Below, piece by piece: positions 4,527 through 34,101 of a DNA stretch of 35,057 nt. This stretch comes from a virus (taxonomy: Duplodnaviria > Heunggongvirae > Uroviricota > Caudoviricetes). The number at the start of each line of letters is the position of its first letter. Position 1 is the stretch's first letter. Where the stretch lies: IMG/VR virus record IMGVR_UViG_2563366917_000007. One strand, written 5' to 3'. Position numbers and translations under genes: made by a program. The notes under the pieces are model-generated. The model saw nothing but the letters and a program-made list of their open reading frames with translations, ran no database searches and was not told where the DNA came from.

Positions 4527-4826
4527 ATGGTGGCTGACATGAAGTGTAATCGTAAGCGCTGGTCACGCGAAGACCGGGAATTTATCGAAGCCAACGTCGG
4601 GAAAATGACCGTTGAAGAAATGGCGGAAAAACTGAAAGTCGCCACAACCGCCCTCCGGGCACATGCCAGAAGGCACGGAATATCATTGTGTGTATACCGA
4701 ATCAGTGAACACGACAAATATTTATGTCGTGAACTTTATAAAGAAGGACTGGATATTCATGTCATTGCCCGAAAGATGGAATTAAGCAATCGAGCTGTAT
4801 CCAGCATTGTATACAGCGGATATTAA
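4527..4826 (+). CDS. Hypothetical early protein with HTH-like segments (possible DNA-binding)
   Basis: 99 aa; start abuts previous stop; segments MTVEEMAEKLKVATTALRAHARRHGIS and LDIHVIARKMELSNRAVSSIV resemble helix-turn-helix motifs. Alternative start at 4539. Confidence 0.45.
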   Translation: MVADMKCNRKRWSREDREFIEANVGKMTVEEMAEKLKVATTALRAHARRHGISLCVYRISEHDKYLCRELYKEGLDIHVIARKMELSNRAVSSIVYSGY

Positions 4827-4845
4827 TTAACAGGAGCTTTAATTT

Positions 4846-5370
4846 ATGGCTAAACCAGCAAAACGTATCAAAAGTGCCGCAGCGGCTTATGTGCCACAAA
4901 ACCGCGATGCGGTGATTACCGATATTAAACGCATCGGGGATTTACAGCGCGAAGCATCACGTCTGGAAACGGAAATGAATGATGCCATCGCGGAAATTAC
5001 GGAGAAATTTGCAGCCCGGATTGCACCGATTAAAACCGATATTGAAACCCTTTCAAAAGGCGTTCAGGGATGGTGTGAAGCGAACCGCGACGAACTGACG
5101 AACGGCGGCAAAGTGAAGACGGCGAATCTTGTCACCGGTGATGTATCGTGGCGGGTCCGTCCACCATCAGTAAGTATTCGTGGTATGGATGCAGTGATGG
5201 AAACGCTGGAGCGCCTTGGCCTGCAACGCTTTATTCGCACGAAGCAGGAAATCAACAAGGAGGCGATTTTACTGGAACCAAAAGCCGTCGCAGGTGTTGC
5301 CGGAATTACGGTTAAATCGGGAATTGAAGATTTTTCCATTATTCCATTTGAACAGGAAGCCGGTATTTAA
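4846..5370 (+). CDS. gam: Gam host-nuclease inhibitor (Ku-like DNA end-binding protein)
   Basis: 174 aa, strong RBS (AGGAG); sequence matches Mu Gam as I recall it, and the length is identical (174 aa). Confidence 0.85.
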   Translation: MAKPAKRIKSAAAAYVPQNRDAVITDIKRIGDLQREASRLETEMNDAIAEITEKFAARIAPIKTDIETLSKGVQGWCEANRDELTNGGKVKTANLVTGDVSWRVRPPSVSIRGMDAVMETLERLGLQRFIRTKQEINKEAILLEPKAVAGVAGITVKSGIEDFSIIPFEQEAGI

Positions 5371-11899: not shown

Positions 11900-13555
11900 A
11901 TGAACACCAGAGAAAACAACCTTAAAGCCCTTCATGCCCCCCGAAAAATCAACCTGCGTGAGGAAGCCGAACTGCTCGGCGTGAATATCGTGACCGATAT
12001 CGGGGAAGCACAGCCCCGCAATGAACCGGTTTTTCTGGGCTATCAGCGCCGCTGGTTTGAGGATGAAAGCCAGATTTGCATCGCTGAAAAATCCCGTCGT
12101 ACCGGTCTGACATGGGCCGAAGCGGGCCGCAATGTCATGACGGCAGCAAAGCCGCGCCGCCGTGGCGGTCGCAACGTCTTTTATGTGGGTTCCCGTCAGG
12201 AAATGGCGCTGGAATATATCGCCGCCTGTGCCCTGTTTGCCCGCGCCTTTAACCAACTGGCAAAGGCTGATGTCTGGGAGCAGACCTTCTGGGACAGCGA
12301 CAAAAAAGAAGAAATCCTCACTTATATGATCCGTTTCCCTAACAGCGGATTTAAGGTGCAGGCGCTGTCAAGCCGTCCGTCTAACCTGCGTGGTTTGCAG
12401 GGGGACGTGGTGATTGATGAGGCGGCATTTCATGAAGCCCTGGACGAACTCCTGAAAGCGGCCTTTGCTCTCACCATGTGGGGTGCCCGCGTGCGGATCA
12501 TATCGACGCATAACGGCGTCGATAACCTGTTTAACCAGTACATTCAGGATGCGTGCGAGGGGCGCAAGGATTACAGCGTTCACCGCATCACGCTGGATGA
12601 TGCCATCGCTGACGGGTTGTACCGACGTATCTGTTACGTCACGAATCAGCCGTGGTCGCCGGAAGCGGAAAAAGCCTGGCGTGATGGCCTGTACCGGAAT
12701 GCGCCGAATAAAGAGAGTGCCGACGAGGAATACGGCTGCATTCCTAAAAAATCCGGGGGCGCTTATCTGTCACGCGTGCTGATTGAAGCCGCCATGACGC
12801 CAGTGCGGGATATCCCGATTCTGCGTTTTGAAGCCCCGGACGATTTTGAATCGCTGACACCACAAATGCGCCACGGCATCGTTCAGGACTGGTGTGAACA
12901 GGAGCTGCTCCCGTTGCTCGATGCGCTGTCGCCGCTCAATAAACACGTACTGGGCGAAGACTTTGCACGCCGTGGCGACCTGACGGTGTTTGTGCCGCTT
13001 GCCATCACTCCTGACTTACGCAAACGCGAATGTTTCCGCGTGGAGCTGCGTAATGTGACCTATGACCAGCAGCGACAAATCCTTTTATTCATTCTGTCCC
13101 GTTTGCCCCGTTTTACCGGCGCTGCATTTGATGCCACCGGTAACGGCGGTTATCTGGCAGAAGCCGCCCGTCTGATTTATGGCCCGGAGATGATCGACTG
13201 TGTGAATCTGACCGCATCTTGGTATCAGGAGTGGATGCCCAAACTGAAAGGCGAGTTTGAAGCGCAGAACATCACGATTGCCCGGCACCAGACCACACTT
13301 GATGACCTGCTCCACATCAAGGTGGACAAAGGTATTCCGCAGATTGATAAGGGGCGCACAAAAGACGAAGGCGGTAAAGGCCGACGACATGGCGACTTTG
13401 CCGTGGCGCTCTGTATGGCTGTCAGGGCGTCTTATATGAATGGTTTTGTTATCGACGAGGACAGCATACAGGCGCTGCCACCACGCCACCGTGGTGATGG
13501 TGTTGATAACGATGATTTTGATGATTATCACCAGTTTGAACGAGGGGGCTGGTAA
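11900..13555 (+). CDS. E: Terminase large subunit
   Basis: Start at internal ATG 11900 (RBS GAGAGGG) rather than ORF-track 11708; ~551 aa; ATPase-like GLTWAEAGRN and acidic nuclease-type motifs; followed by the portal. Confidence 0.8.
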   Translation: MNTRENNLKALHAPRKINLREEAELLGVNIVTDIGEAQPRNEPVFLGYQRRWFEDESQICIAEKSRRTGLTWAEAGRNVMTAAKPRRRGGRNVFYVGSRQEMALEYIAACALFARAFNQLAKADVWEQTFWDSDKKEEILTYMIRFPNSGFKVQALSSRPSNLRGLQGDVVIDEAAFHEALDELLKAAFALTMWGARVRIISTHNGVDNLFNQYIQDACEGRKDYSVHRITLDDAIADGLYRRICYVTNQPWSPEAEKAWRDGLYRNAPNKESADEEYGCIPKKSGGAYLSRVLIEAAMTPVRDIPILRFEAPDDFESLTPQMRHGIVQDWCEQELLPLLDALSPLNKHVLGEDFARRGDLTVFVPLAITPDLRKRECFRVELRNVTYDQQRQILLFILSRLPRFTGAAFDATGNGGYLAEAARLIYGPEMIDCVNLTASWYQEWMPKLKGEFEAQNITIARHQTTLDDLLHIKVDKGIPQIDKGRTKDEGGKGRRHGDFAVALCMAVRASYMNGFVIDEDSIQALPPRHRGDGVDNDDFDDYHQFERGGW

Positions 13556-20503: not shown

Positions 20504-20693
20504 ACCCGCAGCGGGAAAAGCCATCCGTGACCCGCTCACGATGAAATTACTGGCTCCGGAGGGAGAAGAAAAGCCCCGTAACAGTTTCTGGATACGTCGC
20601 CTTGCAGCCGGTGATGTGGTTGAAATCGGGAGCACCGAAAACACGGCGGATGATACCGACGCTGCGCCGAAAAAACGGAGTAAATCGAAATGA
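20487..20693 (+). CDS. Small virion protein (Mu gp38 position)
   Basis: 68-aa ORF, coupled to the sheath gene. Confidence 0.5.
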
Positions 20694-22177
20694 GCGATAT
20701 TTCATTTAACGCGATCCCGTCAGATGTTCGCGTTCCTCTGACGTATATCGAATTTGATAACAGTAATGCCGTCAGCGGAACACCGGCACCCCGTCAGCGC
20801 GTGCTGATGTTCGGGCAAAGCGGAAGTAAAGCCAGTGCGGCACCAAACGTGCCTGTCCGTATCCGTTCCGGCTCACAGGCCAGTGCGGCATTTGGTCAGG
20901 GTTCCATGCTGGCACTGATGGCAGATGCATTCCTGAACGCTAACCGCGTGGCGGAGCTGTGGTGTATTCCGCAGGGAAACGGCACCGGTAATGCTGCTGT
21001 CGGTGAAATCTCACTGTCCGGAACGGCAGGCGAAAACGGCTCGCTTGTGACTTACATAGCCGGTCAGCGACTGGCGGTATCTGTCGCAGCAGGTGCAACG
21101 GGAGCGGCGCTGGCTGACCTGCTGGTTGCCCGAATCAAAGGCCAGCCTGATTTACCGGTGACGGCAGAAGTTCGCGCAGACAGCGGGGATGATGACACCC
21201 ATGCAGATGTGGTTCTGAGTGCAAAATTTACGGGTGCATTATCTGCCGTGGATGTGCGCTGGAACTATTACGCGGGTGAAACCACCCCTTACGGGATTAT
21301 CACGGCATTCAAAGCCGCCTCCGGGAAAAATGGCAACCCGGATATCAGCGCAAGTATCGCGGGAATGGGCGATCTGCAATACAAATATATTGTGATGCCC
21401 TATACCGATGAACCGAACCTGAATCTGTTACGCACTGAATTGCAGGAACGCTGGGGACCGGTCAATCAGGCTGATGGCTTTGCCGTGACAGTGCTGTCCG
21501 GCACGTATGGGGATATTTCCACGTTTGGTGTCAGTCGTAATGACCATCTGATCTCCTGTATGGGGATTGCCGGTGCACCGGAACCGTCATACCTGTACGC
21601 CGCCACACTGTGTGCCGTTGCCAGCCAGGCGCTTTCCATCGACCCGGCGCGTCCTCTCCAGACGCTGACGTTGCCCGGAAGAATGCCGCCTGCGGTGGGG
21701 GATCGTTTCACCTGGTCAGAACGTAATGCGCTGCTGTTTGACGGCATCTCCACGTTTAACGTGAATGATGGTGGTGAAATGCAGATTGAACGCATGATCA
21801 CGATGTACCGCACAAACAAGTACGGTGACAGCGATCCGTCTTATCTGAACGTGAATACCATCGCCACGCTGAGTTATCTGCGTTATTCGCTGCGAACCCG
21901 CATCACGCAGAAATTCCCGAACTACAAGCTGGCAAGTGATGGCACCCGCTTTGCCACCGGTCAGGCCGTGGTGACGCCATCCGTGATCAAGACGGAACTG
22001 CTGGCACTGTTTGAAGAATGGGAAAACGCCGGACTGGTCGAGGATTTCGACACGTTCAAAGAGGAGCTGTATGTGGCACGTAACAAGGACGACAAAGACC
22101 GTCTTGATGTGCTGTGCGGCCCGAATCTGATTAACCAGTTCCGCATTTTCGCGGCACAAGTTCAGTTCATTCTGTAA
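20690..22177 (+). CDS. L: Contractile tail sheath protein
   Basis: 495 aa (same as Mu L); followed by a 118-aa tube protein. Confidence 0.85.
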
Positions 22178-22186
22178 GGAGCATTT

Positions 22187-22543
22187 ATGGCTGGAAATCA
22201 GCGTCAGGGGGTGGCGTTCATCCGTGTCAATGGCATGGAGCTTGAATCAATGGAAGGTGCCTCCTTCACGCCTTCCGGCATCACCCGTGAAGAAGTGACC
22301 GGCTCGCGGGTTTATGGCTGGAAAGGTAAACCACGTGCCGCAAAAGTGGAATGCAAAATTCCGGGCGGTGGTCCCATCGGGCTGGATGAAATTATCGACT
22401 GGGAAAACATCACCGTCGAATTCCAGGCTGATACCGGTGAAACCTGGATGCTGGCGAATGCCTGGCAGGCGGATGAACCGAAAAACGACGGCGGCGAAAT
22501 TTCGCTGGTACTGATGGCAAAACAAAGCAAACGCATTGCATAA
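22187..22543 (+). CDS. M: Tail tube protein
   Basis: 118 aa, immediately after the sheath, RBS present. Confidence 0.8.
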   Translation: MAGNQRQGVAFIRVNGMELESMEGASFTPSGITREEVTGSRVYGWKGKPRAAKVECKIPGGGPIGLDEIIDWENITVEFQADTGETWMLANAWQADEPKNDGGEISLVLMAKQSKRIA

Positions 22544-22552
22544 GGGGAAACA

Positions 22553-22987
22553 ATGGACGAAATGAATTTAAGTCCTGAAGCACAGGAACTGCGTGACAGT
22601 ATTGTGGCGGAGCTTCAGTCCGGTGGGCTGAAACTGAAAGACGGCCTGCCGTTCGGCACCGGTGACGAGACTGAAATGCAGTATGACGTGACACTGCGTG
22701 AACTGACCGCAGGCGATCTGATTGATGCCCAGGCGGCTGCTGAAAAGCTGGTAATGAGCAAGGAAGGTCCGGTGCTGGTCAGTTCCCCGTCCCGGATGGG
22801 ACTGGAAATGCTGCGCCGACAGATTGCCAGCGTGGGTTGCATCAAAGGCCCGTTATCGCTGGCGCTGATGCGCAAGCTGTCTGTTGATGACTTCCAGCGT
22901 CTGTCGCTGGCTACAGAGATGCACGACATGGCTGTGGCGGCATCGCTGACGCAAGAACGGGGGCGAGTGGCTGCGGTGCCGGAATGA
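22553..22987 (+). CDS. Tail assembly chaperone (Mu gp41 position)
   Basis: 144-aa acidic protein between tube and tape measure genes. Confidence 0.55.
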   Translation: MDEMNLSPEAQELRDSIVAELQSGGLKLKDGLPFGTGDETEMQYDVTLRELTAGDLIDAQAAAEKLVMSKEGPVLVSSPSRMGLEMLRRQIASVGCIKGPLSLALMRKLSVDDFQRLSLATEMHDMAVAASLTQERGRVAAVPE

Positions 22988-23131
22988 TATTGAGAAAGCG
23001 GCGACAGCGATTGGCGTTATTCTGAAAAGTGGCCCGGAATGGGCCTTGTCTCTCCCGCTGTCCCGCTTTTTCCGGCACTGCCAGCAGGCGAAAACCTTCT
23101 CTCAATATCACCGTTAAATCAGGAAATATCT

Positions 23132-25576
23132 ATGACCGGGAAACGCTTAAAAGCGTCAGTCATTATTGACCTTAATGGCAATCTTTCCCGGCGTTCCCGC
23201 CAGTATTCGAACCAGATAAACGCCCTGTCCCGTAGCGGGCAAAGTTCCCTTCGTGCCCTGCGTATGGAGGTTGTGCGCGTTTCTGGTGCCATTGACAGAA
23301 TGGGTTCTCTGTCAACCCGTACATTCCGAATGCTGTCAGCCGGGGCGCTGGGTATCGCTGGCGTGGGTTACACCGCCAATAAACTGTTTATTGGTGCAGC
23401 CGCCCAGCGTGAGCAACAGATCATCGCCATGAACTCGCTGTATCACGGCGATAAGGTCAGAGCGCAGGCCATGATGGCCTGGGCAAAGCAGAACGCGAAG
23501 GACACCACGTGGGGGCTGAGTGGTGTTCTTGATGAGATCCGTTCGTCGAAAGGCTTCGGCATGACGGATGAACAGACGAAACAGTTCATCACCATGTTGC
23601 AGGATCAGGGGGCCATGCACGGCTGGGATTTACCCACTGCACAGGGTGCCTCACTGCAACTGAAACAGATGTTTGCCCGCCAGCAAATCACAGCGGCGGA
23701 TGCCAACCTGCTGACCGGTTACGGTATCAACGTTTATCAGGCGCTGGCTGATGCAACGGGAACGGACGTTAAAAAAATCCGTGATCTGGGTACAAAGGGC
23801 AAGCTGGGCATGAAATCCATTCTGACGGTATTCAGAACGCTGTCAGAACAGTCAAAAGGTGCACAGGCCAGTGCGATGAACTCCTGGGACGGGATGTTCG
23901 CCCAGATGGAAGCCAACCTGCTTGAATTTCGCATAAAGGTGGCAAACAGCGGCCCCTTTGAAGAAATCAAGAACGAGATGCGCCGGGTGCTTAACTGGCA
24001 CGACATGGCGGATAAATCCGGGGAACTTGACGCACTGGCAGAAAACATTGGTCAGAAATTTCTGACCACGTTCAGAACGGTAAAAATCGCGGCGCAGGAA
24101 TTATGGCGCTGGCTGAAACCGGGCAAGGATGCGCTGGTATGGGTTGACCAGAATATTGTCAGCCTGAAAAAACTGGCTGCTGTTCTGGTGTCCGTCTGGC
24201 TTGCCAACAAAGCTCTGAGGACAGGCTGGGCCGTGGCTAAACCCTCATGGCAGGTTGCCAGTTATCCGTTTAAAACCGGGCGTCGTATGTGGCGCCGGAT
24301 GCGGAACCGCAAACGTGAGCAGGCAGGTCTGCCGATCCCGGCGCCCATGACAACTGAGGCGCTGTTGCAGGGCACCGGCATTCAGCGTGTGTTTGTCATC
24401 AACTGGCCCCGTGGATTTGGTGGCTACGGGAGTGGCGGCGGTCGTCGCGGACGCGGCGGCGGAAGAACGCCCCCGCTGTTACCCCGCCAGCCGCTGTTGC
24501 TGCCCGGGCCACGACCACTGCCATTACCTGCACCACGCCCTGTGCCGGCATTACCCCCACCCGGCGTTCCGGCAGCAGCACGCCCCGCGCCACGACCTTT
24601 ACCCGGTAAATCCGGTCTTCCGGGCAGGTTTGCAGGCAGCGCTGCCGCGCAGCAGGTTACGGGAGCGGCAGGAACGCTGGCGAATGCCGGGCGTACTGTC
24701 AGCAGACTGCTTTCCGGTGCCGGAAACAGGCAGACCGCGCCATCTCCGGTCGTCCCGGTAACACCGCGCCCCGCGCCCCGCCCTTTGCCCGCTAAATCCG
24801 GTCTTCCGGGCAGGCTGGCAGGCAGCGCTGCCGCGCAGCAGGTTACGGGAGCGGCAGGAACGCTGGCGGATGCCGGGCGTACTGTCAGCAGACTGCTTTC
24901 CGGTGCCGGAAACAGGCAGCCCGCGCCATCTCCGGTCGTCCCGGTAACACCGCGCCCTGCGCCACGCCCTTTGCCCGCTAAATCCGGTCTTCCGGGCAGG
25001 CTGGCAGGCAGCGCTGCCGGGCAACGGGTTACGGGAACGGTCGGAAAACTGGCTGATGTCGGGCGTGCCGTTGGCGGGTGGTTTTCCGGTATCGGGAACA
25101 GACTCGCAGACAGCGCAATCGGTAGGGTTGTGACAAAAGGTGCCGGGGCGCTGGGCTGGATGGGGAAAGGTGCCGGTCGTGCCCTGTCACGTCTGGGTGG
25201 CCCGGTAATGGGGGCACTCCAGCTTGCCCCCGTCCTGATGGATGAGCAGGCGTCAACCCATGAAAAAGCAGGCGCAATTGGCAGTACAGCCGGTGCATGG
25301 CTCGGCGGTGCCGTTGGCAGCCTTGCCGGACCGCTGGGTACGGTTGCCGGTGCCACGTTGGGCAGTGTCGCCGGGGAGTATCTGGGCGGTTTTGTAACCG
25401 ACCTGTATCAGAAATGGACGGCCCCGGATAAGGAACCGCAGGAACAAAAAGTGAATGCGGAAGCCTCGCTGCGCGTCGAACTTGGCGAGGGGTTACGTCT
25501 GACCAGTTCCCGCGTCACCGAGGACGGTATGGGGCTGAATATTTACGCGGGCGATAACTACATTACAGGCTGGTAA
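23132..25576 (+). CDS. Y: Tail tape measure protein
   Basis: Start at ATG 23132 (RBS AGGAAAT) rather than ORF-track 23039; ~814 aa; helical N-terminal half, Gly/Pro-rich low-complexity C-terminal half. Confidence 0.8.
24581..25080 (+). repeat. 186-bp near-perfect tandem repeat (~2.7 copies) inside the tape measure gene
   Basis: Anchor TAAATCCGGTCTTCCGGG recurs at 24607, 24793 and 24979 (period 186 bp = 62 codons); encoded copies differ at only a few residues. Confidence 0.85.
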
Positions 25577-25580
25577 AACC

Positions 25581-27068
25581 ATGTTTGAAGATGCTTTAAA
25601 TGCCGTTAATGCTGTCCGGGATAAAATCAGCGGTGGTAAGAAAACAACCGGCAAAGGCACGTTTCGTAACGTGCCGTTTCTCGTCATCGAGGAGCAAAAA
25701 CAGGCTGGCGGACGTCGCCTGGTTAAACGCGAGTACCCGTTACGTGATACCGGCGGCGTCAATGACCTGGGGAAAAAGCTTCGCTCCCGTACATTCAGCG
25801 CCTGCATTCTGAACAGCAACGCAGAAACAGCCAGAGATGAAGCGGGTGCGCTGATGGATGCTCTTGATGCTCCGGGTGGCGGTGAGCTGGTACATCCTGA
25901 TTTCGGCACTGTGGACGTCATGGTGGATTCATGGGAATGCCGCACTAAAGCGGATGAACTGAATTATTACGCGTTCACCGTTACCGTTTATCCGTCGTTG
26001 CAGGATACTGCCCCGGACTCAGAGACAGACACCAGTGCAGCCGTACCGGCACAGGCCGTTGCTGTAACCGGTTCTCTGGGAGATACGCTGTCCTCTGTCT
26101 GGCAGACCGTAAAAGATGGCACTGCGGCGGCAACCGCCGTGATGGAAGCTGTAACCGGTGTCATCGATGATATCAGTGATGCGGTGGACAATCTGGGGGT
26201 TACGCAGACTGTCAGCGGTCTGATGGGATCGCTTTCTGCGATGAAAGGCTCTGTGACCAGCCTGATTAACCAGCCTGCCATGCTGGCCTCCTCGCTGATG
26301 GGGGCGCTGTCCGGCGTTTCATCGTTATGCGATACCCGGACAGCATTTTCCACATGGAACCGTCTGGCGCAGCGATTCGAACGTCGCCATGCCGCCACCG
26401 CAGGCAGACAGGGGACAATCACAACCTCGTACAACAGTCCGGTTGCAGAAAAAAATATTGCCACACTGAACTACGTCATGCTGGCAGCAGCACAGACATA
26501 CCGGGCGGAGGCAGCAAGCCAGGCACTGACTGCGGCACTGGATTTCAGTCGCCGGATGGATAATGCCGCCCGTGCACCTGTACTGGATGCCCCGTCCACC
26601 ACAACCGGCACAGCCAGCGGGGCCAGCAGCACATCCGCTACCGTCACACAGGGACAGTTACAGTTAACTGCCATAACCCCGGACGGCGGTTTTTCACAGG
26701 TATCCTTTTCAGACAGTGGTACAGCCACGCCCCCGGTATTTGAAAGTGTGTCCGATATCGGAAAAACAGCCGCCATGCTGGGGGCAGCGCTGGATACCGT
26801 CATTCTGACGGCATCTGAGCAGGGTTTTTCGACAGACAGCGCTCAGCTTACGCAACTGCGCCTGCTGGTTGTTGCTGACCTGGAAAAACGCGGACTGCAA
26901 CTGGCGGGCAGTGAAATGCACAGCCTGCCGGAGACGATGCCCGCAGTGGTGGCCCTGTACCGTTACACAGGAAACAGCCGGAACTGGCAACGGCTGGCCC
27001 GCAGGAATGGCAGCAGCAACCCGTTATTTGTTCCCGGTGGTGTCAGTACTGAGGTGATTAATGAGTAA
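25581..27068 (+). CDS. N: DNA circularization protein N-like (Mu gp43 family)
   Basis: 495 aa, directly after the tape measure gene; synteny. Confidence 0.7.
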
Positions 27069-28200
27069 TACCGTCACACTGCGAGCGGATGGCAGGCTGT
27101 TTACCGGCTGGACGTCAGTTTCTGTCACCCGCTCCATTGAATCCGTAGCCGGATATTTTGAGCTGGGGGTGAATGTGCCACCGGGTACAGATTTATCCGG
27201 GCTGGCACCGGGGAAGGCGTTCATGCTGGAAATCGGGGGGCAGATTGTCTGCACCGGTTATATCGATTCACGGCGACGCCAGATGACCGCTGACAGTATG
27301 AAAATCACTGTCGCCGGACGTGACAAAACGGCTGACCTGATTGACTGTGCTGCCGTTTACAGTGGCGGACAGTGGAAAAACCGCACACTGGAGCAGATTG
27401 CGCGTGACCTGTGCGCCCCTTATGGCGTTACCGTTCGCTGGGAGCTTTCCGATAAGGAAAGTTCGGCAGTTTTTCCCGGCTTCACGCTGGACCATTCAGA
27501 AACCGTTTATGAGGCGCTGGTGCGTGCCTCCCGCGCACGCGGTGTACTGATGACCAGCAATGCCGCCGGAGAGCTGGTATTCAGCCGGGCTGCCAGCACA
27601 GCCACTGATGAGCTGGTTCTCGGAGAAAATCTGCTGACACTGGATTTTGAGGAAGACTTCCGCGACCGGTTCAGCGAATACACCGTCAAGGGGTATGCCC
27701 GCGCAAATGGTGCTGAGGGTGATGATATTGATGCGAAAAGTATCGTCTCCCGGAAAGGGACCGCGACTGACAGTGATGTGACCCGTTACAGACCGATGAT
27801 CATCATTGCTGACAGCAAAATTACGGCGAAGGATGCACAGGCCCGCGCCCTGCGTGAGCAACGCCGCAGACTGGCAAAATCCATCACCTTTGAGGCAGAA
27901 ATTGACGGATGGACTCGCAAGGACGGGCAACTCTGGATGCCGAACCTGCTGGTCACTATTGATGCCTCGAAATATGCCATCAAAACCACGGAATTACTGG
28001 TCAGCAAAGTCACCCTGATACTGAATGACCAGGACGGGCTGAAAACCCGCGTCAGCCTTGCACCACGCGAAGGCTTTCTGGTGCCGGTTGAAAGCGACCG
28101 TAAAAACAGGAAAGGCGGCGACAGTAACGGCGGTATTGATGCGCTGGTTGAAGATTATTATCGCAGACACCCGGAGAAAACGCCGCCATGGAAAGAGTAA
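27061..28200 (+). CDS. P: Baseplate hub protein (Mu P / gp44, P2 gpD-like)
   Basis: 379 aa (same as Mu gp44); overlaps N stop. Confidence 0.75.
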
Positions 28201-30298: not shown

Positions 30299-30831
30299 CA
30301 CCCTATCAGACGGCCTTTCTGCAATTACTGCCGTCAGGGCTTGCCTGGAATAAAAGCCCCGACAGCAAATTATCTGCGCTGGCGCAGGCCATCAGCGACG
30401 TGATTGCCACTGCGGCGGATGATGCGCGGCAAATGCTGCGGGAGCGTTTCCCGTCCACATCCCGCTGGTATCTGGGTGAGTGGGAATCATTTCTGGGGTT
30501 GCCGGACTGTACAAGCGAAAACGGCACCCTGTCCGAACGCCAGCGGGCTGCCGCGAATAAAATGCGTATGACCGGCAATCTGAGTCGGCGCTTTTATGAA
30601 TGGCTGGCTGCGCAGTACGGTTTTACCGTCAGGCTGACGGATTCCACAGAAGGCCAGTGGGTTACGCAGGTCAATATTTACGGTATTAAAAATTATCGCA
30701 ACGCAACGGTGCTGGATAATGTTCTGACGCCGTTACGTGTTTATGAATCGGGTGCGCTGGAATGTTTACTGGAGAAATATAAACCTGCACATCAGATTTA
30801 TAAATTTGTTTACCATGACGGAGATAACTAA
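30289..30831 (+). CDS. Baseplate/tail protein (Mu gp48, P2 gpI-like)
   Basis: 180 aa; overlaps neighbours; immediately precedes the fiber gene. Confidence 0.65.
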   Translation: MAVTPYQTAFLQLLPSGLAWNKSPDSKLSALAQAISDVIATAADDARQMLRERFPSTSRWYLGEWESFLGLPDCTSENGTLSERQRAAANKMRMTGNLSRRFYEWLAAQYGFTVRLTDSTEGQWVTQVNIYGIKNYRNATVLDNVLTPLRVYESGALECLLEKYKPAHQIYKFVYHDGDN

Positions 30832-33395
30832 TGTTTTATATTGATAACGACAGCGGCGTAACCGTCATGCCGCCCGTATCCGCCCAGCGTAGTGCTATCG
30901 TTCGCTGGTTTTCAGAAGGTGACGGGAATAATGTTATCACATGGCCCGGCATGGACTGGTTTAATATTGTGCAGGCGGAGTTATTAAACACGCTGGAAGA
31001 AGCCGGTATTCAACCGGATAAAACAAAATTAAACCAGCTTGCACTGTCCATTAAAGCCATTATGGGCAATAACGCGCTGCTGATAAAAAATAACCTCAGC
31101 GAAATAAAAACGGCCGGGGCATCAGCACAGCGCACAGCACGTGAAAATCTGGGTATTTATGATGCCAGTGTGAGCAAAAAGGGGCTGGTTCAGCTAAGCA
31201 GTGCAACAAACAGCACCAGTGAAAAGCTGGCAGCAACGCCAAAAGCGGTCAAGGCAGCAAATGACAACGCAAATTCACGTCTGGCGAAAAATCAGAACGG
31301 TGCAGATATCCAGGATAAATCAGCTTTTCTGGACAATGTTGGCGTTACCAGCCTGACGTTTATGAAAAACAATGGCGAAATGCCGCTTGATGCTGATCTG
31401 AATACATTTGGTCCCGTTAAGGCTTATCTGGGGATCTGGTCTAAAGCTACCTCAACTAACGCAACACTGGAGAAAAATTTTCCGGAAGATAATGCTGTCG
31501 GTGTGCTTGAGGTTTTTGCTGCCGGCAATTTTGCAGGCACGCAACGCTTTATCACGAGAGACGGCAATGTATACATGCGTAAACTCGCCAATAAGTGGAA
31601 TGGTACTGATGGTCCATGGGGCGTATGGCGTCACACTCAATCAGCTACCCGCCCTTTGAGTACGACTATAGACCTGAATACGCTTGGAGCCGCCGAACAT
31701 CTTGGTTTATGGCGTAACAGTAGCTCGGCTATAGCTTCATATGAACGCAATTATCCAGAGGAAGGCGGCTTTGCTCAGGGGACGCTTGAGATCCTCGAAG
31801 GCGGGAATTATGGAAGAACACAACGTTATACCACTCGCCGTGGAAATATGTATGTCCGCTGCCTTGCGGCAAGCTGGGATGCATCAAATCCGCAGTGGGA
31901 ACCGTGGTTAAGAGTCGGTCATCAGTCAGAGAGTCGTTATTACGACGGGGATTTGAATGATGTGACTTCACCAGGTATTTACAGCGTTACAGGTAAAGCG
32001 ACCAACGGTCCAGTACTGGACGGAAACGGCGTGACTGTACTCGGCATTCTGGAAGTGTTGAGGCGGTTTGATGGTGTTAATGTATGGCAGCGTTATACAA
32101 CTGCCGGAACAGGTACAACCCTTAAAGGCCGCACCTTTGAGCGCGTCTTTACCGGCAGCTCATGGAGCGAATGGCGGGAAGTCTACACCTCGTATTCACT
32201 TCCCCTGAATCTGGGTATCGGCGGTGCTGTGGCAAAGCTCACCAGCCTGGACTGGCAGACCCACGACTTTGTGCCGGGCAGTCTGATAACCGTTCGGCTT
32301 GATAACATGACCAACATTCCCAACGGTATGGACTGGGGCGTCATTGATGGCAACCTGATAAACATCGCAGTTGGTCCGAGTGATGATTCCGGTACGGGGC
32401 GCTCAATGCATGTATGGCGCAGCACTGTAAGTAAAGCGAACTACCGCTTTTTTATGGTGCGTATTTCAGGAAATCCGGGACGCCGCACGATTACAGCAAG
32501 ACGAGTACCAATCATTGACGAAGCCCAGACATGGGGCGCGAAACAGACATTCAGTGCTGGCCTTTCTGGTGAACTGTCCGGCAATGCGGCGACAGCAACA
32601 AAGCTGAAAACAGCCCGTAAAATTAATAACGTTTCGTTTGATGGAACATCAGATATTAACCTGACGCCGAAAAATATTGGTGCATTTGCTTCAGGAAAAA
32701 CAGGAGACACCGTTGCGAATGATAAAGCCGTTGGATGGAACTGGAGTAGCGGAGCCTATAACGCAACTATTGGTGGGGCATCAACGTTAATTCTTCATTT
32801 TAATATCGGGGAAGGAAGTTGTCCCGCCGCCCAGTTTCGCGTTAATTATAAGAACGGTGGTATTTTTTATCGTTCTGCTCGTGACGGTTACGGATTCGAG
32901 GCTGACTGGTCTGAGTTTTATACCACAACGCGAAAACCTACAGCGGGAGATGTCGGTGCACTGCCGTTATCTGGTGGTCAATTGAATGGTGCTCTGGGTA
33001 TAGGAACATCCAGTGCTCTTGGCGGTAATTCGATTGTTTTGGGTGATAATGACACGGGCTTTAAACAAAATGGTGATGGTAATCTGGATGTTTATGCTAA
33101 TAGCGTCCATGTTATGCGCTTTGTCTCCGGAAGCGTTCAAAGTAATAAAACCATAAATATTACGGGGCGTGTTAATCCCTCGGATTACGGTAACTTTGAT
33201 TCCCGCTATGTGAGAGATATCAGACTTGGCACACGTGTTGTCCAGACCATGCAGAAAGGGGTGATGTATGAGAAAGCAGGGCACGTAATTACCGGGCTTG
33301 GTATTGTCGGTGAAGTCGATGGTGATGACCCCGCAGTATTCAGACCAATACAAAAATACATCAATGGCACATGGTATAACGTTGCGCAGGTGTAA
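30831..33395 (+). CDS. S: Tail fiber protein (S-like), unusually long, with three internal domain repeats
   Basis: 854 aa; fiber-like N-terminal attachment region; three ~80-aa repeats (approx. aa 187-268, 279-362, 372-452) sharing D-L-N-T-x-G ... NYPE ... TQR(F/Y)xTR ... W; fiber-like Gly/Ser/Thr-rich C-terminal region. Confidence 0.8.
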   Translation: MFYIDNDSGVTVMPPVSAQRSAIVRWFSEGDGNNVITWPGMDWFNIVQAELLNTLEEAGIQPDKTKLNQLALSIKAIMGNNALLIKNNLSEIKTAGASAQRTARENLGIYDASVSKKGLVQLSSATNSTSEKLAATPKAVKAANDNANSRLAKNQNGADIQDKSAFLDNVGVTSLTFMKNNGEMPLDADLNTFGPVKAYLGIWSKATSTNATLEKNFPEDNAVGVLEVFAAGNFAGTQRFITRDGNVYMRKLANKWNGTDGPWGVWRHTQSATRPLSTTIDLNTLGAAEHLGLWRNSSSAIASYERNYPEEGGFAQGTLEILEGGNYGRTQRYTTRRGNMYVRCLAASWDASNPQWEPWLRVGHQSESRYYDGDLNDVTSPGIYSVTGKATNGPVLDGNGVTVLGILEVLRRFDGVNVWQRYTTAGTGTTLKGRTFERVFTGSSWSEWREVYTSYSLPLNLGIGGAVAKLTSLDWQTHDFVPGSLITVRLDNMTNIPNGMDWGVIDGNLINIAVGPSDDSGTGRSMHVWRSTVSKANYRFFMVRISGNPGRRTITARRVPIIDEAQTWGAKQTFSAGLSGELSGNAATATKLKTARKINNVSFDGTSDINLTPKNIGAFASGKTGDTVANDKAVGWNWSSGAYNATIGGASTLILHFNIGEGSCPAAQFRVNYKNGGIFYRSARDGYGFEADWSEFYTTTRKPTAGDVGALPLSGGQLNGALGIGTSSALGGNSIVLGDNDTGFKQNGDGNLDVYANSVHVMRFVSGSVQSNKTINITGRVNPSDYGNFDSRYVRDIRLGTRVVQTMQKGVMYEKAGHVITGLGIVGEVDGDDPAVFRPIQKYINGTWYNVAQV

Positions 33396-33398
33396 ATT

Positions 33399-33926
33399 AT
33401 GCAGCATTTAAAAAACATTAAGTCAGGTAATCCAAAAACAAAAGAACAATATCAGCTAACAAAGAATTTTGATGTTATCTGGTTATGGTCCGAAGACGGA
33501 AAAAACTGGTATGAGGAAGTAAGTAATTTTCAGCCAGACACAATAAAGATTGTTTACGATGAAAATAATATTATTGTCGCCATCACCAGAGATGCTTCAA
33601 CGCTCAACCCTGAAGGTTTTAGCGTTGTCGAGGTTCCTGATATTACCGCCAACCGACGTGCAGACGACTCAGGTAAATGGATGTTTAAGGATGGTGCCGT
33701 GATTAAGCGGATTTATACGGCGGACGAACAGCAGCAACTGACAGAATTACAGAAGGCAACTTTGCTTTCCGAAGCTGAATCCGTGATTTTGCCGCTGGAA
33801 CGCGCTGTCAGGCTGAATATGGCAACAGATGAGGAGCACAGCCGACTGGAGGCATGGGAACGCTACAGCGCTCTGGTCAGCCGCGTGGATACGGCAAAGC
33901 CAGAATGGCCACAAAAACCAGAGTAA
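33399..33926 (+). CDS. U: Tail fiber assembly protein (U-like)
   Basis: 175 aa; C-terminus [25 protein letters not shown] is the typical Tfa signature; directly after the fiber. Confidence 0.8.
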
Positions 33927-33954
33927 AAATTAAGGCCCGATAGCGGGCCTTCTC

Positions 33955-34060
33955 TTATTCTGGTTGTTCGGAAAACGTTACTGGCAGGCTGGAGGGGTCT
34001 GTATATTCGACCTTCTGCGCATAGAGCATCCACTCGGTTAATTTTTGTTTATTCTCGTCG
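33955..34060 (-). pseudogene. Remnant of a second, inverted tail fiber assembly gene (U'-like C-terminal fragment)
   Basis: Minus-strand ORF ends ...LTEWMLYAQKVEYTDPSSLPVTFSEQPE, matching the Tfa C-terminal signature, tail-to-tail with U as in an invertible G segment; the upstream part lacks Tfa features. Confidence 0.4.
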
Positions 34061-34101
34061 GAAATGATACCCAGCCGTAGCGAACGCATATAGAAAACGA
34101 C

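Follow-up and report, generated by a model that had tools for sequence, protein, structure and literature searches.

In-frame expansion of a 62-residue module in the tape measure gene of Mu-like Escherichia coli prophages, with a longer tail expected

Proteins that set the length of phage tails can grow by internal repetition, and we describe a case from a contractile-tailed phage. The DNA analysed (35,057 nucleotides of IMG/VR record IMGVR_UViG_2563366917_000007, referred to here as the window) lies entirely inside a Mu-like prophage of Escherichia coli and ends at the mom stop codon. Its tape measure protein (TMP) gene, a homologue of Mu gene 42, carries three tandem units of 186 bp where Mu has one. 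We consider it likely that this in-frame expansion arose by recombination or slippage between units and that a longer tail is to be expected from it. The array and its reading frame, the identity of the gene, a series of copy-number alleles, the occurrence of the array in complete genomes and the mobility of the carrier prophages are direct observations; the effect of the extra units on tail length is what we infer from them.

Tandem Repeats Finder (TRF) reports a single array in the window (24581..25066, period 186, 2.6 copies), with 93% matches, no indels and a score of 839. Its units begin on the first position of a codon in the TMP frame, so that 186 bp correspond to 62 codons read in frame. 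Homology between units reaches ~25138, and the full array therefore comprises three units in 558 bp (24581–25138). The first two differ at 8 of 186 nucleotides (95.7% identity), which gives three synonymous and four non-synonymous codon changes. The third has only 2 differences from unit 2 in its first 67 nucleotides and is diverged thereafter (72.6% identity overall, and 60% at the protein level over all 62 residues). After shuffling of the gene 20 times, the best 186-nucleotide self-match was 78/186, compared with 178/186 observed. A first-pass annotation, made from the sequence alone, had described a near-identical in-frame 186-bp repeat at 24581–25080 in a Pro/Gly-rich part of the tape measure gene. 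The repeat, its frame and its start stand; near-identity applies to the first two units and to the start of the third but not to the remainder of unit 3, inside which the end at 25080 falls. The compositional description was also right: the linker directly 5′ of the array contains Pro at 29%, Gly at 23% and Arg at 12.5%, and in the units themselves Pro makes up 13%, Gly 16% and Ala 17%.

By sequence, the gene is a Mu-type tape measure gene of the gp42/TMP_3 family, as had been proposed. Its product scores 60.6 bits against a 41-bit cut-off for Pfam TMP_3 (PF20155) and matches at E=0 the ‘probable tape measure protein’ of PDB entry 9ki1, which holds Mu gp42 as three chains; RefSeq gives the identical gene the same name (WP_096956390.1). 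Its position is that of a Mu-type TMP gene, 3′ of the genes for sheath, tube and gp41 and 5′ of those for gp43 and gp44, and outside the insertion it has ~95% nucleotide identity to gene 42 of Mu, D108, SfMu and related isolates. Aligned with Mu gp42 (Mup42, NP_050646; 690 aa), the 814-aa protein is colinear over the N-terminal ~480 and the C-terminal ~210 residues, with a single clean 124-aa gap that corresponds to exactly two units. Mu gp42 has the resident B-type unit, the Pro-rich linker and the C-terminal glycine-zipper region in common with it; the two added 62-aa units are of a distinct, diverged A-type and are not copies of the unit resident in Mu, a refinement of the first description. 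When a profile built from the three units was run against 1.8 billion representative proteins, the matches were limited to pieces of gp42-family proteins of the Mu type and a single weak, unrelated protein, and the module is on this evidence lineage-specific and confined to the gp42 family.

The three-unit array is genuine and no artefact of assembly, because it is found in complete E. coli chromosomes. In both strain S6 (Sweden) and strain 1290 (USA) the gene is 99.9% identical and has the full set of three units. Contigs with the exact TMP protein of the window number 43 and those with the S6 variant 118, in a total of about 190 contigs, and further 814-aa variants lie on several chromosome-sized contigs (5.27–5.36 Mb). 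The 8 sites that separate units 1 and 2 are identical in all three-unit copies examined. One prophage was seen per genome, as a simple insertion, which in S6 lies between patD and ydcV and in 1290 within ydcO, and the repeated gene matches in these genomes (2–3 per record) are most likely register-shifted matches within the array. The two prophages (L002/L151 in S6, L003/L152 in 1290) are near-identical, and their sites are only about 10 kb apart, in opposite orientation; as two random insertions so close together would be unlikely, the phage may have made a local hop or may favour this region. Exact-pattern scans for the A-type unit gave no match in metagenome contigs or genome contigs, and a protein-guided scan of genome contigs found no relative. 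A-type units were present on only one IMG/VR contig (L129, IMGVR_UViG_2875703104_000002), in which the TMP gene is complete and encodes 828 aa.

Copy-number variation, suggested in the first-pass annotation, is borne out by the TMP lengths of close relatives, which are 690 (the great majority), 752, 814, 766, 750 and 671 aa. The gp42 family as a whole gave roughly 800 cluster representatives in a protein search, and many more contigs. Alleles of 690, 752 and 814 aa, with one, two and three units, belong to one clone, that of the window, because their 8-kb loci differ by 0–3 single-nucleotide polymorphisms. Assemblies reported with the 752-aa length include GCA_037632015.1, GCA_030314395.1, GCA_014140675.1 and GCA_030471385.1, and the 690-aa allele comes from GCA_014140705.1. 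Judged by the marker sites that tell one unit from another, all the shorter alleles are mosaics of the three-unit array with a shift of register. The crossover lies between units 1 and 2 in two of the 752-aa alleles, at 50–102 nt within the unit in P0005 and at 102–153 nt in P0006; it lies between units 2 and 3 in a third (P0003, 752 aa; 11–67 nt) and between units 1 and 3 in the 690-aa allele (P0022; 20–25 nt). None of the length variants breaks the reading frame. Divergence is 4.3% between units 1 and 2 and at most 0.04%, in 8 kb, between flanks within the clone; the series therefore reflects contraction from three units and not recent expansion. The recency that had been read from the near-identity of the units is thus to be qualified: the duplication is not very recent. 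The linker is itself polymorphic in length, as a 671-aa allele (P0025, on 2 Logan contigs) has a 19-aa in-frame deletion in its Pro-rich part (window ~24530–24590) between short direct APRP repeats.

The history of the array extends beyond this clone. A background that is 2.8% diverged (P0001; L015/L039) has the same three-unit array, and the segment that holds linker and array (24305–25182) differs from that of the window at 2 sites only, whereas the adjoining 3′ end of the gene (25183–25555) differs at 30 sites, or about 8%. This sharp mosaic boundary points to exchange of the array-bearing segment between backgrounds by recombination. A second lineage, with Mu-type flanks and a left junction 14 aa longer, encodes a three-unit TMP of 828 aa or a two-unit TMP of 766 aa between flanking genes that are 100% identical. 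Because both lineages have four of the unit-1/unit-2 marker sites in common (14, 20, 25 and 50), the A-type unit was probably duplicated a single time, in an array ancestral to both, which again places the event further back than first thought. In two lineages three units are the dominant state, which has lasted while the flanks diverged by 2.8–3%. A third expanded lineage (P0023/P0147; 750–752 aa) has a ‘C-type’ unit; it was found in no complete E. coli genome, and pattern scans for it were empty. A distant Mu-like phage (L148, IMGVR_UViG_2225789004_000324; gp48 68% identical) has a 750-aa TMP with a tandem repeat of its own in the equivalent C-terminal region (4558–4910; 135 bp or 45 aa, 2.6 copies, 75% matches), which is independent of the 186-bp array.

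These observations can be accommodated by a simple sequence of events. Unequal homologous recombination or replication slippage between units would have generated the array, an older duplication giving rise to the diverged A-type unit and a later one duplicating that unit again, so that the Mu gp42 homologue came to have three in-frame modules in place of one; the same process would still be removing units and producing the two-unit and one-unit alleles. In Mu, cryo-electron microscopy places gp42 as a trimer inside the tail tube's lumen, the tail consists of 30 stacked tube and sheath rings with a rise of ~35 Å, and gp42 is stated, by citation, to determine tail length (PMC11915804). If tube and sheath polymerise around a trimer that fills the lumen, 124 extra residues would produce a longer tail. 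In other phages, deletions and duplications in TMPs change tail length linearly (PMC5099701, PMC3271669). Averaged over the whole of Mu gp42, 1050 Å over 690 aa corresponds to 1.52 Å per residue. This is close to the rise of an α-helix, which is 1.5 Å per residue. Arithmetic calibrated on Mu in this way predicts about 94 Å, or 2.7 rings, for each unit; the 814-aa protein would specify about 35.4 rings and a tail of 124 nm, compared with 105 nm (30 rings) in Mu, or about a fifth longer, and the 828-aa protein 36 rings.

Several points weigh against this reading. Only residues 674–690 of gp42 are resolved in the Mu structure (PMC11915804), and a single unit is found in each of the 13 sequenced Mu-like isolates, with no expanded TMP among them. 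The module lies in a Pro/Gly/Ala-rich stretch that AlphaFold2 (AF2) models without secondary structure, at very low confidence (predicted local distance difference test, pLDDT, 33), and its contribution to length could be about zero, or more than 1.5 Å, per residue. As regards the contraction series, the two-unit alleles come solely from draft or metagenomic assemblies, and a k-mer test indicates that their junctions can be produced by collapse of three-unit reads at k of ~51–56 or less. One two-unit allele sits on a MEGAHIT contig assembled at k=141, and the one-unit allele is not a de Bruijn collapse of the three-unit array, because its junction holds novel 15-mers. The two-unit alleles are therefore likely to represent real contraction, which is not proven for every two-unit record.

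The prophages with expanded TMPs also differ from Mu in their tail fibres. Mu has S and S′ fibres selected by an invertible G segment, whereas this prophage encodes a P2-type long fibre of 854 aa, compared with 504 aa for Mu S. The Mu S-type part covers about aa 1–110/160, and over aa 111–854 the protein shares 91% identity with the Peduovirus P2 fibre. The exchange is limited to the shaft and tip of the fibre; baseplate, sheath and tube remain Mu-type, and the TMP is not homologous in sequence to that of P2 (no P2-type match in TMP searches). The fibre region of the window (30831–34080) is without the invertible G segment (S′ and most of U′) and without the gin invertase, and for this reason the prophage is judged to have lost the host-range switch of Mu.

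Long TMPs and long fibres occur together. TMP lengths of 690–691 aa are paired with fibres of 405–515 aa in Mu, L040–L043 and four IMG/VR contigs, and 703 aa with 500 aa in SE11; at the other extreme, TMPs of 766 aa are found with fibres of 854–856 aa in lineage 2, 814 aa with 854 aa in the window clone and P0001, and 828 aa with 854 aa in lineage 2 (7 insertion sites) and in the context of P0303. The comparison covers backgrounds with a readable fibre gene; two IMG/VR contigs with 690–691-aa TMPs and truncated fibre open reading frames (ORFs) of 260 and 152 aa were left out, and the fibres of the P0023/P0147 lineage and of P0022 are not included. Within this set, every expanded-TMP background has the ~854-aa Mu/P2 chimeric fibre and no G segment, every phage with a TMP of 690–703 aa has a Mu-type fibre (405–515 aa) and, conversely, all chimeric-fibre contexts examined have a TMP of at least 766 aa. 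The one possible exception is P0022, a 690-aa draft allele that belongs to the clone of the window by its 8-kb flanks. In complete E. coli genomes the chimeric junction is present only in S6 and 1290; the other Mu-like prophages listed match the Mu-type part of the fibre only (nt 1–479, one to 489). The 828-aa contig L129 has a long-type fibre gene that is frameshifted and would encode about 880 aa if read through. The frame is shifted by a perfect 80-bp tandem duplication (12330–12489; 2.0 copies, 100% identity), which represents a new inactivating mutation or else a mistake of assembly.

We tentatively propose that in Mu-like phages the lengths of tail and fibre have become adapted to each other, with the acquisition of a P2-type fibre having required or selected for a longer tail through TMP expansion; we regard this as a possibility, and a somewhat doubtful one. 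Mu fibres have been reported to dock along the groove of the sheath (PMC11915804), which provides a physical rationale for coupling the two lengths. The association has survived mosaic recombination, because the three long-fibre backgrounds form no clade in the genes for sheath, the N-terminal part of the TMP, gp43 or gp44. The expanded TMPs (814–828 aa) are close in length to the coding sequence in the gpT position of the P2 record (815 aa, 2448 bp), and a distant Mu-like pair follows the same trend (677 aa with a 439-aa fibre in L147 compared with 750 aa with a 580-aa fibre in L148). What weighs against co-adaptation is that array and fibre gene are only about 5 kb apart and may share one origin. 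A literature search found no paper describing coupling of TMP length to fibre length.

The alternative that survives best accepts the array and denies it an effect on tail length. The extra units would then form a disordered spacer, either compressed within the lumen or active only after ejection, for example by helping to span the periplasm during DNA delivery, and their number would drift near neutrality. Low-confidence AF2 modelling of the 814-aa TMP, in which residues ~400–630 (linker included) are without regular secondary structure, offers a weak hint in its favour; the model (mean pLDDT 33) was too poor for fold searches. The Pro/Gly/Ala-rich composition points in the same direction, as do the occurrence of one-, two- and three-unit alleles within one clone and the ratio of codon changes between units 1 and 2 (four non-synonymous, three synonymous), which gives no sign of strong constraint; moreover, parts of the TP901-1 TMP serve functions besides length (PMC5099701). 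However, the calibration of 1.52 Å per residue is an average over the entire Mu protein, in which a Pro-rich linker and the resident unit are also counted, the three-unit allele has been kept as the dominant one in two lineages despite the divergence of their flanks, and neutrality does not predict the tight association of expansion with a longer fibre. We consider this alternative unlikely in either form, and favour expansion of the module with an effect on tail length.

Decay by slippage in a defective prophage, in a gene no longer under selection, is far less credible. Frameshifted genes in some relatives and the out-of-frame fibre duplication of L129 would fit it, but the late genes of the window, S6 and 1290 prophages are all intact and colinear with Mu, and none of the length variants disrupts the frame. 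The distribution of lineage 2 also argues against it. Its 828-aa allele has 100% DNA identity at seven chromosomal insertion sites and on one phage-length metagenomic contig. Eight prophages of this lineage (L153–L160) lie beside eight different host loci (the aroC region, purK, eut/aldehyde dehydrogenase, lacI–lacZ, the flg operon, the pga operon, tilS and the leu operon), with an identical 828-aa TMP gene in 7 of the 8. The presence of identical prophages of a transposing phage at many chromosomal sites indicates recent mobility and bears the signature of an actively transposing, lysogenising Mu-like phage, apparently never isolated. Carriers of the expanded TMP thus appear to be viable and mobile.

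The array, which the first-pass annotation had flagged as a likely hotspot of assembly collapse, does break short-read assemblies: many ‘partial’ TMPs of 446–516 aa stop at or just short of it at contig ends, several IMG/VR contigs break off at TMP residues 414–459, and the metagenomic scaffold L161 has a 100-N gap within it. The idea that the true genome is single-copy and the array an artefact, to which these breaks lend a little colour, has next to no chance of being correct, given the same array in two independent complete genomes, on chromosome-sized contigs and on about 190 contigs overall, in a 2.8%-diverged background and, as 828 aa, at 7 or more loci in a second lineage, and given 8 fixed differences between units 1 and 2, as assemblers collapse repeats and never invent diverged extra copies.

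Coordinates of the array and of the genes around it are collected in Table 1. The TMP frame is open upstream to 23039, that is, for 31 codons 5′ of the Mu-equivalent start (23039–23131) and after the end of gp41 at 22987; annotations of Mu-like phages place at the equivalent site a chaperone product extended by frameshifting (gp41.5 in D108). Two minus-strand ORFs (310 and 141 aa) and a 124-aa ORF in another frame over the array had no Pfam match, and an Rfam search gave only a sub-threshold chance match. These ORFs are likely to be by-products of repeat DNA of 69% GC and to mislead gene callers.

Table 1. Features of the tape measure and tail fibre regions, in coordinates of the window
Feature	Position	Strand	Remarks
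Sheath	20690-22177		Expected Pfam family
Tube	22187-22543		Expected Pfam family
gp41 tail assembly chaperone	22553-22987		Expected Pfam family
TMP gene, Mu gp42 homologue	23132..25576	+	814 aa counted from Mu-equivalent ATG
Spurious long ORF	24387-24761	+ (other frame)	Runs through repeat DNA
Gly/Arg-rich then Pro-rich linker	24413..24580	+	aa 428-483; directly 5′ of array
Spurious long ORF	24424-25356	-	Runs through repeat DNA
Unit 1, A-type	24581..24766	+	62 codons; absent from Mu
Youngest-duplication register	24648..25019	+	24648-24833 vs 24834-25019; 4/186 nt differ, best in register scan
Unit 2, A-type	24767..24952	+	62 codons; absent from Mu
Unit 3, B-type	24953..25138	+	Resident unit, single copy in Mu gp42
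gp43 tube initiator	25581-27068		Expected Pfam family
gp44 hub	27061-28200		Expected Pfam family
Chimeric tail fibre, 854 aa	30831..33395	+	Mu S-type N-terminus joined to P2-type fibre
Tail fibre assembly protein (Caudo_TAP)	33399..33926	+	
Inverted U′ gene remnant, 126 bp	about 33955-34080	-	Coordinates transferred from S6 annotation

In-frame tandem units are familiar from the TMPs of siphophages (TP901-1, staphylococcal phages, mycobacteriophages with 11-aa units, and lambda gpH), in which the number of units varies by duplication and loss and TMP length scales with tail length (PMC3271669, PMC5099701, PMC8616913, PMC13585406). In the Belcaid/TP901-1 type the units are of 11 aa, with aromatic markers, whereas here the unit is of 62 aa, no 11-aa or aromatic-marker periodicity was detected in its sequence, and 186 bp is the sole period that TRF detects across the window. 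The present array differs further in lying in a Pro/Gly/Ala-rich, probably non-helical region of the TMP of a contractile-tailed phage. Expansion of TMP repeats is an established route to tune tail length, and in this respect our core finding is an ordinary one; the example in a myophage is new. Its value lies in a clean natural series of one, two and three units in otherwise identical genomes of Mu, a tractable model myophage with a near-atomic structure, which makes a test of the ruler model straightforward for a Pro-rich, probably non-helical TMP segment. A practical warning also follows, as a 558-bp array of this kind breaks, and may collapse in, short-read assemblies of common E. coli prophages. 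If the proposed co-adaptation is true, swaps of receptor-binding fibres between phage families would constrain tail length, which would matter for the engineering of host range by fibre exchange.

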